From positions 1-43,203 of the forward strand of contig JAMCRT010000001.1 of the NCBI GenBank assembly GCA_023380695.1: a DNA stretch of 43,203 bases, in the 5' to 3' direction. Source of the DNA: Patescibacteria group bacterium (lineage in GTDB: Bacteria > Patescibacteriota > Dojkabacteria > JAKAPS01 > JAJZLI01). Made by a program: the position numbers and the translations under genes. A model generated the notes under the pieces. It had not been told where the DNA came from. It worked only from the letters and a program-made list of their open reading frames with translations, and made no database searches. Of this stretch, positions 2,902-43,203 are shown piece after piece. Within the stretch, counting starts at the first letter, position 1. Every line of letters starts with the position of its first letter.

Positions 2902-3219
2902 ATGTACAAAAGAATGACAACAATGACTCCAGCTGGGGTAGATATAACTTTAGATGATTTCATTAAAGAATTAGAAGTAGAAAGAACAAAAAAGAATAAT
3001 CTCACTATTAATAGTATCGCCAGTATTAACGGTATCAATATTGATACTAGTATGATAGAGACTCTAAGGAATGAAAATGGTCAATTAGTACTAAGTATTA
3101 ATGGTAAAATTTTGAGAGATATAGTTGATGTTTATATAGAATATGGAAATAATGAAGGAAATATTGATAGCCATGGACAATCATACTATATTCAGTATAT
3201 TCAAATTATAGATTCCTAA
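2902..3219 (+). CDS. hypothetical small protein (105 aa); listed ORF 2794..3219 trimmed to the SD-preceded ATG
   Basis: The in-frame ATG at 2902 (MYKRMTTMTPAGVD...) directly follows AAGGAGGTGAT. The upstream 36 codons are low-complexity and overlap the divergent promoter region. Confidence 0.6.
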   Translation: MYKRMTTMTPAGVDITLDDFIKELEVERTKKNNLTINSIASINGINIDTSMIETLRNENGQLVLSINGKILRDIVDVYIEYGNNEGNIDSHGQSYYIQYIQIIDS

Positions 3220-3244: not shown

Positions 3245-3505
3245 TTATCTATAAAGTTGACTATGGCTACCTACTGCCACAAATAACACTTTATTTTGAT
3301 TAATGACTTTTAAATGTAATCTCAAATCTCCACCTGCACTAATTGAGTAATAACCTAACCATTTATCCTTTAATACATGGTTTCTTAGTGAAGGGCTATA
3401 AATATCTTCTAAAAATAATTTTATAGTATTCCTTACTTTCTTTTGTTTTTGTACAGGTAATTTTTTAAATTGTTTTTCAAATGTCTTTGTAAAATCTGCA
3501 TCCAT
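3245..3505 (-). CDS. RelE/YafQ-family type II toxin
   Basis: 86 aa. The C-terminal part reads LRNHVLKDKWLGYYSISAGGDLRLHLKV...VAVGSHSQLYR, which is typical of RelE/YafQ mRNA interferases. An antitoxin gene lies 5 nt upstream. Confidence 0.85.
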   Translation of the reverse strand: MDADFTKTFEKQFKKLPVQKQKKVRNTIKLFLEDIYSPSLRNHVLKDKWLGYYSISAGGDLRLHLKVINQNKVLFVAVGSHSQLYR

Positions 3506-3510
3506 TCTTT

Positions 3511-3795
3511 TTATTTTTTCATCAATTCATCGAGATAAACTAACGCTTCTGCAGGACTATTAGTGTGAATTATATTATGATCATTCTTGTAGTCAAAATT
3601 TGCTTTATGCATAATCTCTTCAAGATAAGGAGTTGGTTCTAAGCTAGTACTAAGTACTACACGTCTATCTCTTAACACTTGTTTAACAATCATATTTATA
3701 AATGCAGTAGTAGATACCCCAAGTTCTTTTGCAAAAGCTTTAACCTCTTCTTTTGTTTCAGAATCTGTTTTTATATTTAATAATACGCTACTTAT
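3511..3795 (-). CDS. RelB/DinJ-like ribbon-helix-helix antitoxin; no canonical start codon for the RHH part
   Basis: The listed ORF starts at ATG 3693. The same frame is open upstream and reads SSVLLNIKTDSETKEEVKAFAKELGVSTTAFINM. This parallels MDTVISVRVNKGVKEYAKEVATSCGLTLSAVINS of the paralogue at 7808..8077. Only ATA (3793-3795) or ATT (3796-3798) are available as starts. Confidence 0.55.
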   Translation of the reverse strand: MSSVLLNIKTDSETKEEVKAFAKELGVSTTAFINMIVKQVLRDRRVVLSTSLEPTPYLEEIMHKANFDYKNDHNIIHTNSPAEALVYLDELMKK

Positions 3796-4890: not shown

Positions 4891-5069
4891 AATTTTTGAG
4901 CTTTAGAAAGTTGGGCGTTATAATAAGACTTGATATTGACTATATTTATATTGTTGATAGAAAGTGTACTATAATGTACACCTTCTGTATGTATTCAAGT
5001 ATTGTTAAATAGATTACGAAACATATAAGACTCTTAAATGAGTAAAAAGAGGAATGAAATAATCAATAA

Positions 5070-5321
5070 CCAATACAATATAAATATTTAGAAAAAGCTG
5101 TATCTACTATTCTTGCTCTAATTAGAAAAATCTTAAATGTTAACAAAATCGTATTTGTTGTTAACAAAAAAGATATAAAAATTAAGCCTGTTACAATCAG
5201 TATTGATTCTTTGGCCTCAAAATATTCACCATTGTATAGTGGAAAAGATATCAATGATGTTGTGAAAGATGCAAGAAGGGAACATGCAAATAGACAAAAT
5301 AATTATATAAAGGTAAAATAA
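5070..5321 (+). other. stop-free 83-codon frame without ATG/GTG/TTG start (gene relic or non-canonically initiated small gene)
   Basis: The frame reads PIQYKYLEKAVSTILALIRKILNVNKIVFVVNKKDIKIKPVTISIDSLASKYSPLYSGKDINDVVKDARREHANRQNNYIKVK*. A frame this long without a stop is unlikely by chance in such AT-rich DNA. Listed ORF 5063..5254 is its antisense shadow. Confidence 0.3.
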
Positions 5322-8349: not shown

Positions 8350-10007
8350 TCTAGTCTAATTTCTTCAGTTGATGCTCCAGGTTCAATCATAGGAAAGATG
8401 ACTTCCTCTTTTTGGGTTTTAAATTCTATGATATATGCACCTTTATATTTACGTGCTTTTTTGATTGCATTATCTACATTATCTTTTGAATTTACAGTTT
8501 CACCTTTTATTCCAAACCCTTTGGCCAATGTTATAAAATCAGGATTTTTGAGTGATACATGTGATAATTGCCCATCAAAAAACATATCTTGCCATTGTCT
8601 TACCATTCCTAGAAAGCTATTATTTATTATAGCTATTTTAATATTGAGATTTTCTTGTTTTATTACTGCGAGTTCTTGTAATGTCATTTGTATACCTCCA
8701 TCGCCAACGACTATCCATACTTCTTCTTGAGGTTTTGCAATTTTTACACCTATACCTGCAGGTAATGCAAATCCCATTGTTCCCGCACCCCCTGATGTAA
8801 AAAAGGAATTTGGAATTTTAGATTTATAGTATCTTGCTGTAATCATCTGATTTTGTCCTACATCAGATATAACATATGCCCTTCCATCTGTTATATCTGA
8901 TAATCTTTTTATGATGTATGCACATGTAAGATTATTATTTTTCTCTTCTCTATCCAAGACCTTTATTTTCTCTTGTGTGCTCCATTTATCTAAATCTTTA
9001 AACCAATTAGATCTTTTTTGATATTTTAATTTATTATTTGCAAGTTTAAAAAAATCTTTAAGATCAGTGTGTATACTGATATGAGTTTTTACATTTTTAT
9101 CAAATTCGTTTTTATTAATATCTACATGGATAATTTTTGCAGATTTAGCATAATCATCTAATCTTCCGGTTACTCTATCATCAAATCTCATTCCTAAAGC
9201 TATGATACAGTCTGATTTTGCTGTTGCCATATTGGGAGCATAATTGCCATGCATTCCAAGCATTCCTATATATCTAGGACTGCCTTCATTAATCACTGAT
9301 AAACCGTGTAGTGTACAAGCCACAGGTATATTTCCATTATCTGAGAATTTATGTAGTTCACTATATGAACTGGCAATTCTAATTCCATGCCCTGCAAGTA
9401 TTAATGGTCTTTTGGAGTTATTTATTATTTCACATGCATCTCTAACAAGTTTCTCATTTATTTTTTTCATATCAATTGGTATGTGATAGATATTTTTTCT
9501 TGATGTAACTTCATTAGTTTGTGCATCTTTTGAGATATCTATAAGGACAGGGCCAGGTCTTTGTGATTTTGCAATTTTTATTGCCTCATACATTGTATCC
9601 TCTATCATGCAGGGATCTGTTATAAGGAAGTTATATTTTGTTATAACAGAGGTGATACCTACAACATCTGTTTCTTGAAACGCTTCTTTTCCTATTAGAT
9701 CTGATTGTACTTGTCCTGTTATTGCAAGTATGGGAACAGAATCCATTAGTGCATCTACAAGTCCAGTTACTAGATTTGTTGCACCAGGCCCAGATGTTGC
9801 AAAACATACACCGATTTTATTTGTTGCTCTTGCATATCCTTCTGCTGCATGTATAGCTCCTTGTTCATGTCTAACTAAAATATGCCTTAGTTGTTGATTT
9901 TTTGATAGTGCATCATATATTGGCATTATAGCTCCACCTGGATATCCAAAAATTGTAGTTATGTTATTAGAAGTTAAACTTTTAAGTAATATTTCTGATC
10001 CTGTCAT
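8346..10007 (-). CDS. ilvB: acetolactate synthase large subunit (ThDP-dependent)
   Basis: 553 aa. The N-terminus reads GSEILLKSLTSNNITTIFGYPGGAIMPIYDAL. The ThDP motif region reads GDGGIQMTLQELA...NN. Confidence 0.9.
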   Translation of the reverse strand: MTGSEILLKSLTSNNITTIFGYPGGAIMPIYDALSKNQQLRHILVRHEQGAIHAAEGYARATNKIGVCFATSGPGATNLVTGLVDALMDSVPILAITGQVQSDLIGKEAFQETDVVGITSVITKYNFLITDPCMIEDTMYEAIKIAKSQRPGPVLIDISKDAQTNEVTSRKNIYHIPIDMKKINEKLVRDACEIINNSKRPLILAGHGIRIASSYSELHKFSDNGNIPVACTLHGLSVINEGSPRYIGMLGMHGNYAPNMATAKSDCIIALGMRFDDRVTGRLDDYAKSAKIIHVDINKNEFDKNVKTHISIHTDLKDFFKLANNKLKYQKRSNWFKDLDKWSTQEKIKVLDREEKNNNLTCAYIIKRLSDITDGRAYVISDVGQNQMITARYYKSKIPNSFFTSGGAGTMGFALPAGIGVKIAKPQEEVWIVVGDGGIQMTLQELAVIKQENLNIKIAIINNSFLGMVRQWQDMFFDGQLSHVSLKNPDFITLAKGFGIKGETVNSKDNVDNAIKKARKYKGAYIIEFKTQKEEVIFPMIEPGASTEEIRLE

Positions 10008-41053: not shown

Positions 41054-41106
41054 ATATAAAAGTATATACTATATAATATTTATTACAATAGAATGTATAC
41101 ATATAC

Positions 41107-41128
41107 TTGATATATATATATATATCAA
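41107..41128. repeat. (AT)8 dinucleotide repeat embedded in the perfect 22-bp palindrome TTGATATATATATATATATCAA
   Basis: Read directly. TTGATA (-35-like) forms its left edge, and TATAAG (-10-like) sits at 41135-41140. Confidence 0.9.
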
Positions 41129-41148
41129 AATTAGTATAAGAAAGTAAT

Positions 41149-41159
41149 AAGGAGGTGAT
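41149..41159 (+). promoter_or_regulatory. strong Shine-Dalgarno AAGGAGGTGAT
   Basis: It lies 6 nt upstream of the ATG at 41166 and is identical to the 11-mer at 2887-2897. Confidence 0.75.
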
Positions 41160-41165
41160 ATTATT

Positions 41166-41294
41166 ATGGAAACATTAGAAAATATTAATCCTTTAGAATG
41201 GTTGAAGGACACAGATAAACAAGATACAGAAATTTTATTAGGATCAGCAACTTATACAGGAGCAGGAACTAACAATTGTGATGATCAAGATTGA
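41166..41294 (+). CDS. 42-aa candidate RiPP (graspetide-type) precursor peptide; not in the supplied ORF track
   Basis: It encodes METLENINPLEWLKDTDKQDTEILLGSATYTGAGTNNCDDQD. It has a strong SD, a C-terminal tail rich in Thr/Ser and Asp, and an ATP-grasp gene 105 nt downstream. Confidence 0.55.
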   Translation: METLENINPLEWLKDTDKQDTEILLGSATYTGAGTNNCDDQD

Positions 41295-41314
41295 TTAATC
41301 TAAAATCTATTTTA

Positions 41315-41345
41315 AATAACTGCTTATTTAAAATAGGCAGTTATT
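41315..41345 (+). terminator. 13-bp stem hairpin between the peptide gene and the ATP-grasp gene (attenuator or partial terminator candidate)
   Basis: AATAACTGCTTAT-ttaaa-ATAGGCAGTTATT with one G-U pair. No clean U-tract follows, so terminator function is uncertain. Confidence 0.35.
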
Positions 41346-41399
41346 ACTACTATAGTATTTCTTTTAGAATATTAATATTATCGAGATAAAAAAATAGGT

Positions 41400-42340
41400 A
41401 TGAAAAAAATTCTTATAGTATCAGAGGAATATGATTTACATGTCAAAAAGGTTATCAGTTTTATTGATAAATATAGTTGGTCTATTGATGTTATTGGTAT
41501 AGAGAAACTTGAAAAAGAAGGATATATTGAAATATTCAATAATACAGAAAATAGTTTTTATATAAATAAAAGAAAAATAAAAAATTATGATATATGTTGG
41601 TGGAGAAAACCTCAATATTTAGATAGATCAGAAAAATATTTAAAAAATGTAAATCTATCTAATATTGCGGAAGTAGAAAAAAAGAATTTTTTATTAGGTA
41701 GCATATTAAATATTTCGATAAAAAAATGGGTTAACAATATATTAGATATACAAAATGCAAGTTATAAAATTAATCAACTAAAAGTGCTAAATAGTATTCA
41801 GAATAATTCTTTGTCAATACCAAAAACTATAATAACAAATAGAAATGAAATTATTTCTCAATATTTCAAAAATAAATTTATAATGAAAAGTATTAGATCT
41901 CAAAATTTTGGATTAGAAGAAGGATTAATAAAATCTACTCTTACACATGTAGAAGATATTTCAAAAATAAACTTGAATTTTTCACCAGTTATTTGTCAAG
42001 AATTTATAGATAAAGTTTCTGATATTAGAGTTACTATTGTAGGAAAAAAATATTTAGTGCAAAGATATATCCTTTATCTGAAAAAGCAAAAATAGATTTT
42101 AGAACTGATTATAAAAATCTTTCCTATGAAAAATATATATTGCCAAAAGATATAGAAACTACACTGTTAAGATTGAATAAATGCTATAATCTTAATTATT
42201 CTGCAATTGATCTTATGGAAGATAAAAATGGTAAAATATATTTTTTAGAATTGAATCCAAATGGCCAATATCTTTGGGTAGAAAATAAATTAGATTTGCC
42301 TATATCAAAAGCAATGGCAGACTTCATAGTAAATAAATGA
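41400..42340 (+). CDS. microviridin-type (MdnB/MdnC-like) ATP-grasp ligase, split by a -1 frameshift at an A7 run
   Basis: Listed ORFs 41400..42095 and 42140..42340 are two halves of one gene. The first ends ...DIRVTIVGKK. The -1 frame continues IFSAKIYPLSEKAKIDFRTDYKNLSYEKYILPKDIE...YSAIDLMEDKNGKIYFLELNPNGQYLW. The joined product would be about 313 aa. Confidence 0.65.
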
Positions 42341-43057
42341 ATGTTTAATTTATCTAAAACTTTACAAATAAATAGTAGAGAAGCTTTAAATCTTCTAATT
42401 AAAGATTTCGAAAAAACTAATATTATAATTTGTGGAGAAGTTCATGGAATAAAAGAAAATTATTTGATTTATGAATATTTAATAAATATGTTGAATGTTT
42501 CACAAGTAGGTATAGAGTTGAATAAAAAACTGTTTGACTTCATAAAAAAGAAAGATGTTGTTGAGTGTGAATTTGATTTCAAAAATGATAAAAGGTTATA
42601 TAAATATTTGATTGATGGAAGAATAAATAAATCTTTTTTAAATTTAGTATATAAACTAAAAAAGAAAAACATTAAAATATTTTTATATGATAATGCTTCA
42701 TATAAAGATATTATAAAATCAAATGATCCAAGAAATGATATAAGAGATAAAATCATGGCAAAAGATATTTTAAGAAATAATATAAATAATGAAAAAACTT
42801 TTATATGGGCAGGAAATAATCATACCAGTTGGAAAAGAATCTCACAAGGAAGAACTAGTATGTATAATTATTTAAAACAGCAAGGTGTAAAAGCTACTTT
42901 AGTGAAAATAGAATATGGAAGAGGTTATTTCTATAATTTAAAAATTAAAAAAATAAAAGGAGATAAAAACATAACAGAGTACCGATTATTAAAATATAAA
43001 TATGGTTATAAATTTCAAATACCAAATCCTAAGGCCATAATTCCTTATTATAAATAG
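42341..43057 (+). CDS. erythromycin-esterase/ChaN/Tiki-superfamily-like protein
   Basis: IIICGEVHG near the N-terminus and FIWAGNNH later resemble the GE.HG and WAHN.H motifs of EreA-like enzymes. Its start abuts the ATP-grasp stop. Confidence 0.45.
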   Translation: MFNLSKTLQINSREALNLLIKDFEKTNIIICGEVHGIKENYLIYEYLINMLNVSQVGIELNKKLFDFIKKKDVVECEFDFKNDKRLYKYLIDGRINKSFLNLVYKLKKKNIKIFLYDNASYKDIIKSNDPRNDIRDKIMAKDILRNNINNEKTFIWAGNNHTSWKRISQGRTSMYNYLKQQGVKATLVKIEYGRGYFYNLKIKKIKGDKNITEYRLLKYKYGYKFQIPNPKAIIPYYK

Positions 43058-43069
43058 AAAGAATGAATT

Positions 43070-43203
43070 CTAATCGTCCAAGCAGATCCGCGTGAGTAAT
43101 CACGGGGGTGTATCGGGTTCCTAAGTCAGGTGGTACAATAGAAGAAATGGAAACGAGACGTCAAGCCAATGTGGTGTATAGAGTGGAATACCATATAGTG
43201 TTG
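43070..43203 (+). mobile_element. tnpA: left end of an IS200/IS605-family element (hairpin plus start of a Y1 transposase TnpA), truncated by the window edge
   Basis: GC rises abruptly here. A hairpin CCGCGTGA-gtaa-TCACGGGG lies at 43088-43107. The ATG at 43147 opens METRRQANVVYRVEYHIVL, matching the vvY..eYHiV N-terminal signature of IS200 TnpA. Confidence 0.55.

Follow-up and report, generated by a model that had tools for sequence, protein, structure and literature searches.

The window analyzed here is a 43,203-nucleotide stretch of Patescibacteria DNA (assembly GCA_023380695.1, contig JAMCRT010000001.1, positions 1 to 43,203). Close to its 3' end lies a compact locus consisting of a small open reading frame (ORF), an ATP-grasp ligase gene and a hydrolase-like third gene, which together point to an operon for a graspetide, an omega-ester peptide made on ribosomes and modified after translation (RiPP). 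Graspetides are protease-inhibiting multicyclic peptides in which ATP-grasp enzymes install ester or amide links from Ser, Thr or Lys to Asp or Glu side chains via an acyl phosphate, and 21,584 of them have been predicted in 43 groups (PMC13097080). The locus comprises the following features.

41093-41128, plus strand: putative upstream control region containing palindromes
41149-41159, plus strand: Shine-Dalgarno (SD) sequence AAGGAGGTGAT, six bases 5' of the precursor ATG
41166-41294, plus strand: candidate graspetide precursor, called as an ORF of 42 aa, METLENINPLEWLKDTDKQDTEILLGSATYTGAGTNNCDDQD
41315-41345, plus strand: 14-bp hairpin, AAUAACUGCUUAUU-UAA-AAUAGGCAGUUAUU, 3' of the precursor stop codon
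41400-42050, plus strand: N-terminal part of the ATP-grasp ligase, 217 codons read in frame 1 and ending at the frameshift site
42044-42050, plus strand: A7 homopolymer at which one base is missing; the frame 0 ORF ends at TAG 42093-42095
42050-42340, plus strand: C-terminal part of the ATP-grasp ligase, 96 codons read in the -1 frame, then TGA; IFSAKIYPLSEKAKIDFRTDY...FLELNPNGQYLW...
42341-43057, plus strand: third gene, 238 aa, putative hydrolase of the Tiki/ChaN/erythromycin-esterase superfamily, its first base directly after the ligase stop codon
43070-43203, plus strand: GC-rich end of an IS200/IS605 insertion sequence (IS) and start of its Y1 transposase (ATG 43147), forming the boundary of the locus and lying outside the system

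Precursor peptide and ATP-grasp ligase

The 42-aa ORF is present where the initial annotation had placed it, and its last 16 residues indeed contain three Thr, one Ser and three Asp. It can be divided into a putative leader, METLENINPLEWLKDT..., and a putative core, ...SATYTGAGTNNCDDQD, and it is annotated as a gene in four other assemblies.

Joining the 231-aa ORF (41400-42095) and the 66-aa ORF (42140-42340) at the A7 tract yields a frame-corrected ligase of 313 aa which contains all the ligase motifs quoted in the initial annotation. The junction aligns gap-free to intact relatives as well as to MdnC and CdnC, with the restored protein reading ...DIRVTIVGKKIFSAKIYPLSEKAKIDFRTDY...FLELNPNGQYLW...PISKAMADFIVNK across it. 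The C-terminal segment carries the E-x-N motif, which has a role in Mg binding in the ATP-grasp family. Searching the corrected protein against NCBIfam gave E-values of 7e-48 for TIGR04187, 2e-37 for MvdC, 4e-37 for MvdD, 4e-26 for the grasp-with-spasm model and 4e-10 for RimK. In bits, graspetide maturase models reached 128-163, while RimK_fam scored 39.6 (cut-off 143.4) and LysX 26.9 (cut-off 275.6). Because all scores stay under the curated (equivalog) cut-offs, including 163 bits for TIGR04187 (cut-off 350) and 128-129 bits for MvdC and MvdD (cut-offs 425-475), the sequence places the ligase inside the MvdC/MvdD-type graspetide synthetase clade and outside every curated subfamily. Further, a sequence search of the PDB returned graspetide macrocyclases only at E <= 1 (MdnC 5e-24, CdnC 1e-21, MdnB 1.5e-18, AMdnB, 9BOU and PsnB), with no RimK, GshB or Ddl chains among the matches. 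Both searches are in good agreement with the original proposal of an MdnB/MdnC-type rather than a RimK-type enzyme, and in neither does the ligase group with RimK, GshB or Ddl.

In this clade the ligase is mostly a fusion protein of 603-631 aa, and the N-terminal domain of such fusions, about 300 aa long, has no Pfam match (L010 2548-4443, L011 5119-6936, L012 1530-3341, L013 5101-6927 and L014 5107-6927; related contigs are referred to by such numbers throughout). This domain may be a built-in partner or a leader-binding domain. Two loci whose precursors carry the leader NPLEWIQDT encode a separate protein of 232-235 aa between precursor and ligase (L006 2730-3428, L015 5163-5870). It shows a weak phosphoribosyltransferase signature (PF00156, E 0.017; ...ILFIDDWIVSGSTL...) and has no counterpart in the window.

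Conservation of the peptide-ligase pair

Precursor homologues were found by reading the ORFs that lie beside ligase homologues. A word-indexed search with the 42-aa peptide yielded its self-match only, which marks the limit of a word index at such a length. Six homologous precursors adjoin ligases that are 54-63 % identical to the window ligase, in L006-L009 and L010-L015. These ligases come from four metagenome-assembled genomes (MAGs) and several metagenome contigs, with a G+C content of 23-26 % where measured. The homologous precursors are METLEKDIITPLEWLTDDNVQKITMWQTYSTHKDDADDTNDD in L013, METLERDTITPIDWLKDD...MWQTYSTWKSDADDTNDG in L012, MET/ELNEVNPLEWIQDTEIQEITNGEETYTAYDDRDNI in L015 and L006-L009, METDTITPFDWLKDE...TTYTSSQPNDNDD in L011 and METLEKKELISTFEWLKTD...TTWTSFDSNDNDD in L010. 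The L014 copy (4932-5075) contains an in-frame TAA derived from CAA.

Five positions are invariant among the seven precursors, counting that of the window (M1, E2, W12, T29 and D39). The leader follows the pattern M-E-T-L-E-x-[IV]-[TN]-P-[LIF]-[ED]-W-[LI]-x-D, its Pro being missing in the L010 member, and the core follows T-[YW]-[TS]-x(2-7) and then an Asp-rich C-terminus. NPLEWLKDT, the leader of the window peptide, differs little from the NPLEWIQDT of L006 and L015. Over the seven loci the peptide co-varies with the ligase. A search of related genomes for the same pair, as proposed in the initial annotation, thus found it conserved, with the six further precursors sharing both SD sequence and leader. 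More distant ligase homologues (L023-L025, 29-33 % identity) are accompanied by unrelated precursors and by no Tiki-like gene.

The stable hairpin reported after the peptide could also be recovered, with a 14-bp stem that includes one G-U pair. The intergenic region 3' of the precursor folds at -23.8 kcal/mol (z = -3.5), and the hairpin dominates this fold. A terminator scan found no canonical terminator here, and the hairpin does not fit the pattern of one. At the corresponding position, L006 (z -4.4) and L015 (z -4.1), the closest relatives with unfused ligases, have hairpins of unrelated sequence, whereas loci with fused ligases have none. The hairpin could act as an attenuator or stabilizer.

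Translation signals and upstream cassette

The exact 11-mer AAGGAGGTGAT occurs twice in the 43-kb window, at 2887 and 41149, and in each of the other 42 genes of the 44 examined the match to the anti-SD complement spans at most 5 nt. Since SD sequences are otherwise nearly absent from the 44 genes, the earlier remark that the peptide has one of only two strong SD sequences is both correct and meaningful, the observation being well beyond chance. A TAnAAT box ending 3-12 nt 5' of the start codon is found for 14 of the 44 genes (32 %), compared with 5.8 % of random positions. This enrichment of -10-like boxes just 5' of start codons suggests that initiation in this genome is mostly leaderless or SD-independent. 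The second perfect SD sequence (2887) serves a 105-aa ORF at 2902-3219, MYKRMTTMTPAGVDITLDDF..., without a significant Pfam match.

The same 11-mer stands 5' of every precursor gene in 10 related loci. Upstream of it, the window contains a 10-nt palindrome, ATGTATACAT, at 41093-41102, followed by the palindrome TTG(AT)8CAA at 41107-41128. At the matching position relatives have a conserved 16-nt palindrome, TTGCYATGYATRGCAA, and then a -10 box (alignment A6). All that remains of this 16-nt palindrome in the window is the central ATGTATA, and the (AT)8 tract stands where relatives have the palindrome; in strain L002 the tract is (AT)10. The 41093-41128 region is a candidate regulatory element.

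In relatives, a cassette of about 90 nt precedes all precursor-like genes and consists of TTGCYATGYATRGCAA, an AAGACA/TATAAT promoter-like pair, AAGGAGGTGAT and ATGGAAACATTAGAA (METLE). It is located at L006 2458-2582 and 8081-8205, L007 189-313, L010 2252-2376, L011 4852-4976, L012 1218-1342, L013 4805-4929, L014 4842-4966 and L015 4907-5031, the window counterpart being 41076-41200. This one promoter-SD-METLE cassette is common to three different RiPP types in the relatives, which points to a shared regulon or to an expression module that is mobile. No match to the SD-METLE cassette was obtained in viral contigs. At L006 8154-10320, a cassette-bearing gene for a 60-aa METL... peptide with a Pro-rich C-terminus (...KPDRPDPLPPIPDSNCVSKP) stands immediately 5' of one for a prolyl oligopeptidase (Peptidase_S9); this peptide may belong to a different RiPP type.

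Third gene

The third gene begins directly 3' of the ligase stop codon and encodes 238 aa. Its product has only weak Pfam matches to PF05139 and PF04187 (16 bits, cut-off 26.4), and an AlphaFold model built from a 2-sequence alignment reached a predicted local distance difference test score (pLDDT) of 38.9. A word-indexed search returned the protein itself and a fragment in L011 only, while an exhaustive HMMER search yielded 65 representative homologues. In a 34-sequence alignment (A2), G32, H35, E59, G158 and H161 are invariant, and E33, G36, N40, G93 (DGR motif), D117 and R135 are nearly so. Among these 34 family members, 20 match PF04187 (ChaN, Tiki superfamily) and seven match PF05139 (erythromycin esterase). 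The family profile gave weak matches in the PDB in which the GExHG, RDxxMA and (H/G)NxH motifs align to the EreA-like 2QGM and to EreC. Because the window protein itself is sub-threshold and its model poor, the assignment draws on these motifs and on the matches of other family members, and places the protein in the Tiki/ChaN/erythromycin-esterase superfamily rather than in a particular family.

The ligase-hydrolase pair is also found in L011 at 77 % identity. Between window and L011, the hydrolase has ratios of nonsynonymous to synonymous substitution rates (dN/dS) of 0.16-0.25, and the C-terminal part of the ligase has one of 0.17. These values indicate that the pair was under purifying selection for most of its history. 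In L007, a hydrolase homologue is the last gene of an operon whose other genes encode a 57-aa peptide, a ligase of the MvdD type and a methyltransferase resembling UbiE. In L006-L009 the homologue lies two genes 5' of the precursor. In two of seven loci with more distant homologues (L018 and L019), the homologue and a graspetide-type ligase that comes with an ATP-binding cassette (ABC) exporter are convergent neighbours, and L018 also holds a candidate precursor. The L007 operon (279-2916) is a second graspetide operon, its peptide METLERKPFMANFIEIEE... carrying a microviridin-like PFxxxF leader and its ligase measuring 342 aa.

The ABC exporter of the relatives (about 600 aa) has no C39 peptidase domain, which would make a separate leader peptidase necessary; no exporter is present at the window locus. 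By eye, we saw no signal peptide or membrane segment on the third protein. Owing to these two observations, the exporter without C39 domain and the hydrolase without visible signal peptide, the third gene most likely encodes a leader peptidase, and less likely a macrolactone esterase. The initial annotation knew of no graspetide locus with this third gene, but it has precedents, as Tiki/TraB and erythromycin-esterase-like genes have been reported in graspetide loci, those of candidate phyla among them (PMC8939145).

Frameshift in the ligase gene

The ligase ORF starts at 41400 and meets a TAG at 42093 after 231 codons, the remainder lying in the -1 frame up to 42340. At the site the window reads GGA AAA AAA TAT, whereas GGA AAA AAA followed by ATA TTT restores the frame. 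Relatives are in frame at nine homologous sites, which read GGT AAA AAA ATA, GGA AAT AAA ATA or GGA GAT AAA ATA. The A7 tract is found in all five assemblies, that is the window and L001-L004, which represent at least four samples and both Logan and ENA megahit assemblers. Three of these further contigs are identical to the window, and L002 is 99.6 % identical to it. Within the locus, L002 departs from the window only in one single-nucleotide polymorphism and in an upstream AT tract that is two repeats longer. The initial annotation had treated the frameshift as a mere matter of repair, but the lesion is genuine: in every assembly the ligase as encoded is broken and stops after 231 aa, without its C-terminal catalytic segment. 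No intact allele of the ligase was detected among 5.8 billion protein clusters.

We considered a programmed -1 frameshift, for which the heptamer A AAA AAA is present, and rejected it as the main reading, as there is no downstream structure and homologues are in frame. The 80 nt 3' of the A7 tract show no more structure than shuffled sequence does (z +0.43). Since relatives are in frame and no stimulatory structure follows, the simplest reading is an ordinary one-base deletion in a homopolymer (A8 to A7) and not programmed recoding, by which this copy of the ligase may be dead. Such tracts are ordinary in the window, which contains 54 runs of A or T of at least seven bases; elsewhere in it, runs of eight A or T number 20.

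Loss is also visible in sister copies. In L011 (9937-11403) the ligase is truncated and frameshifted, W164 of the hydrolase has become TAG, and there is no precursor. The ligase in L010 (579-1503) is truncated, its poly-A run has one A too many, and an IS200-type transposase lies beside it. The in-frame TAA of the L014 precursor is a further sign of decay, and at the window locus an IS element forms the boundary. Relatives bear several paralogous loci per genome, L011 and L013 belonging to one MAG and L014 and L015 lying about 13 kb apart in another. In the simplest reading, the window locus would probably be a recently inactivated member of a quickly turning-over family. With precursor, SD sequence and third gene intact and a single lesion in the ligase, the inactivation, if real, must be very recent.

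Weighing of the alternatives

Overall, we consider it probable that the locus is a small graspetide operon with a precursor family uncatalogued in the searchable parts of the published surveys, and that it has just been inactivated in this genome. Several observations weigh against this interpretation. Everything but the ligase is intact, the ligase has one lesion only, and the run A AAA AAA forms a slippery heptamer of the classical kind for a -1 shift; slippage, or else a ligase acting in trans, could still provide function. The Pfam matches of the third protein are weak, the number and topology of rings are guessed, and the uncatalogued status of the precursor family is provisional, as only parts of two surveys are searchable.

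The most serious alternative, although an unlikely one, is that the locus is functional and that full-length ligase arises by -1 frameshifting or transcriptional slippage on A AAA AAA, or by phase variation between A7 and A8, with the (AT)n tract perhaps behaving alike. A -1 shift at the heptamer would give exactly the protein of the relatives. The lack of a second ligase lesion next to an intact peptide and third gene, the presence of the frameshift in two strains that are 99.6 % identical and the variable length of the (AT) tract between those strains all fit this explanation. However, the missing stimulatory structure argues against it, as do the nine homologous sites, which are all in frame, so that recoding by this shift is not a conserved trait. 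Seven A's are also short for efficient transcriptional slippage. Also against it stand the absence of an A8 allele from the five assemblies and the protein database, the abundance of A or T runs, which makes such tracts ordinary in the window, and the clear decay of sister copies.

We regard as doubtful, too, the possibility that the ligase encoded in cis is dead and that a paralogous graspetide ligase from elsewhere in the genome, recognizing a shared P-h-[ED]-W-L leader, matures the precursor in trans. This is a live alternative because related MAGs hold two or three paralogous loci each, and both the near identity of the window leader to that of L006 and L015 and the undamaged precursor and SD sequence are consistent with it. 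On the other hand, no second ligase or precursor was found in the available 43 kb, and the window core differs from the cores of the paralogues, which renders cross-processing speculative. That the frameshift stems from an error of sequencing or assembly, with the gene intact in vivo, is very improbable. A single base in an A run is the commonest type of error, but the same A7 recurs in all five assemblies, which represent at least four samples, different assemblers and also a distinct strain, and the 20 other runs of eight A or T are present in the window. Hardly credible, finally, is a RimK-like enzyme adding amino acids to an acidic C-terminus or making a small metabolite beside an incidental ORF: the Pfam RimK domain does match the ligase (3.8e-9), and the RimK substrate S6 ends in an acidic tail as does the window peptide, but the RimK model score lies far under its cut-off and under the scores of the graspetide maturase models, the PDB search yields macrocyclases only, and the peptide co-varies with the ligase.

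Proposed mechanism and significance

For the graspetide operon that we favor, the ancestral system would have worked as follows. The precursor would be translated at a high level from a perfect SD sequence in a genome nearly free of them, with the hairpin probably setting a high precursor-to-enzyme ratio. The leader NPLEWLKDT (consensus P-[LIF]-[ED]-W-[LI]) would then dock on the ATP-grasp ligase, which would phosphorylate the Asp side chains D39, D40 and D42 in the acidic C-terminus. Attack of the resulting acyl phosphates by the hydroxyls of T29, T31, T35 and S27 in the T-Y-T region would give up to about three macrolactone rings. The co-transcribed, presumably cytoplasmic Tiki/ChaN/EreA-like hydrolase would most likely remove the leader or, less likely, open ester rings for immunity or editing. 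In relatives, export would follow through a plain ABC exporter without peptidase domain. In the present genome one A was probably lost from the A8 tract, there is no exporter, and an IS200/IS605 element abuts the third gene.

A broader proposal can be formulated, which we think unlikely to hold in all its parts together. Here, the window peptide and its six homologues would form an undescribed graspetide group. Their genes, and two or more further precursor genes of RiPP type from this lineage, would make up one regulon defined by palindromic operator, -10 box, perfect SD sequence and METLE, in organisms whose translation otherwise starts without SD sequences. The Tiki/EreA-like enzyme would be a dedicated graspetide hydrolase, and the A7/A8 and (AT)n tracts could serve as contingency switches instead of marking decay. 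If true, the hydrolase would become the first assigned stand-alone leader peptidase of graspetides, or a macrolactone esterase for immunity or proofreading.

One more graspetide family is a modest addition to the more than 20,000 predicted. It would offer a compact core (T-Y-T...D-D-x-D) and a short, well-defined leader for studies of ring topology, as well as a hydrolase that is a testable candidate for graspetide leader removal or macrolactone opening. The relatives further illustrate by what means precursor genes are marked for strong translation in a lineage poor in SD sequences. Because the biosynthetic enzyme of the window is frameshifted, heterologous work will require a repaired ligase or the intact enzyme of a relative, for instance one of the 320-aa ligases found in L005 and L006.

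Genomic context

The window has a G+C content of 27 % and carries ordinary genes of a bacterial chromosome, including those for SecA, SerRS, TsaD, RecO, glycosyltransferases and two histidine kinases. An alternative genetic code was rejected, as TGA is the stop codon of 12 of the 44 genes and translation table 11 leaves long ORFs uninterrupted. No tRNAs were found in the window, and no Rfam match was obtained in the window or in its GC-rich end. The Y1 transposase, which starts 90 bases 3' of the third gene, has the translation METRRQANVVYRVEYHIVLVTRYRYK... and matches PF01797 with 24.5 bits (cut-off 23). Owing to this IS200/IS605 element, the three identical contigs from independent assemblies all stop at 43097, inside it; the element continues in L002 at 8782-8895. 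Small gene pairs that look toxin-antitoxin-like by eye sit near RiPP loci or elsewhere in the window (window 3245-3693, minus strand; L011 11547-12079), and include an 86-aa ORF ending in ...GGDLRLHLKVINQNKVLFVAVGSHSQLYR.

Comparison with known systems

The nearest relatives of solved structure are the microviridin and chryseoviridin macrocyclases MdnC, MdnB and CdnC (PDB 5IG9, 5IG8 and 7MGV) at about 30 % identity. The alignment to MdnC and CdnC is nearly full length and spans both the repaired junction and the ELNPxG(E/Q) motif. Microviridins have a PFFARFL leader, a TxKxPSDx(E/D)(D/E) core, and loci with two ligases and a GNAT acetyltransferase. Compared by eye with these motifs, the window leader NPLEWLKD and core SATYTGAGTNNCDDQD are unlike them, in line with the initial annotation, and the window locus has one ligase and no acetyltransferase. 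TIGR04187, which represents the SAV_5884-type graspimiditide systems, is the best-scoring curated model, yet the score lies under its family cut-off, and the PIMT-type O-methyltransferase of those systems has no counterpart at the window locus. The leader-guided acyl-phosphate mechanism that we propose would be shared with MdnC, MdnB and CdnC, as members of one family (PMC13097080).

The closest parallels are found in the candidate phyla radiation (CPR). In the accessible part of their survey, Makarova et al. 2022 (PMC8939145) describe two CPR branches of ATP-grasp ligases with the leader Phhx(1,2)h and the core TxxxTx(6-10)Dx(1-4)D. Branch 2 loci contain Tiki/TraB-family hydrolases and UbiE-like methyltransferases, another branch contains an erythromycin-esterase-like gene, and a 'cluster 23' protein is reported in all branch 1 and 2 loci. 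Like the window, branches 1 and 2 have a small precursor 5' of an MvdC/D-like ligase in uncultured bacteria, a leader in which Pro is followed by hydrophobics, and a core in which Thr donors precede an Asp-rich tail. The branch 2 architecture is matched by the L007 operon with its hydrolase and UbiE-like methyltransferase; this match and distant homologues hint at a CPR affiliation. In detail, the patterns differ. The P-L-E-W-L of the window shares Pro and hydrophobics with Phhx(1,2)h but has an acidic residue at the second 'h', and its core T31-x3-T35-x3-D39-D40-x-D42 has a spacer of 3 instead of 6-10. The nearest core in the accessible part of that survey is that of Gottesmanbacteria cluster 3058, ...HTYTAQRLDDSYSDD, which resembles TYT...DD and whose precursor ends in HTYTAQRLDDSYSDDTQADS.

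Comparison with the numbered groups 1-24 draws on Carter 2026, Makarova 2022 and general background. The searchable supplement text of Makarova 2022 contains neither METLE, PLEW, EWLK, DWLKD or EWIQD precursors nor CWWRKP, PVICQEF/VICQEF or NPNGQYLW ligases, and that of Carter 2026 contains no PLEW or DWLKD precursors. In the accessible parts of Carter 2026, the candidate-phyla groups 27 and 42 do not resemble the window family: the representative precursors of group 27 are unrelated to it, and the DUF6624 protein that characterizes group 42 is not seen at the window locus. The initial suggestion of an undescribed graspetide group therefore stands in part. The precursor family is missing from the searchable parts of both surveys and is provisionally uncatalogued, but the class is known, and because graspetide loci of candidate phyla have already been described, it is at most a new family within that class. 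In case of the third gene, the comparison is with EreA/B/C, ChaN and Tiki/TraB/PrgY. The window protein is shorter than those relatives (238 aa against about 400-445 aa) and its matches are all sub-threshold, but the motifs GExHG, E, RDxxMA and GNxH are retained in its family.

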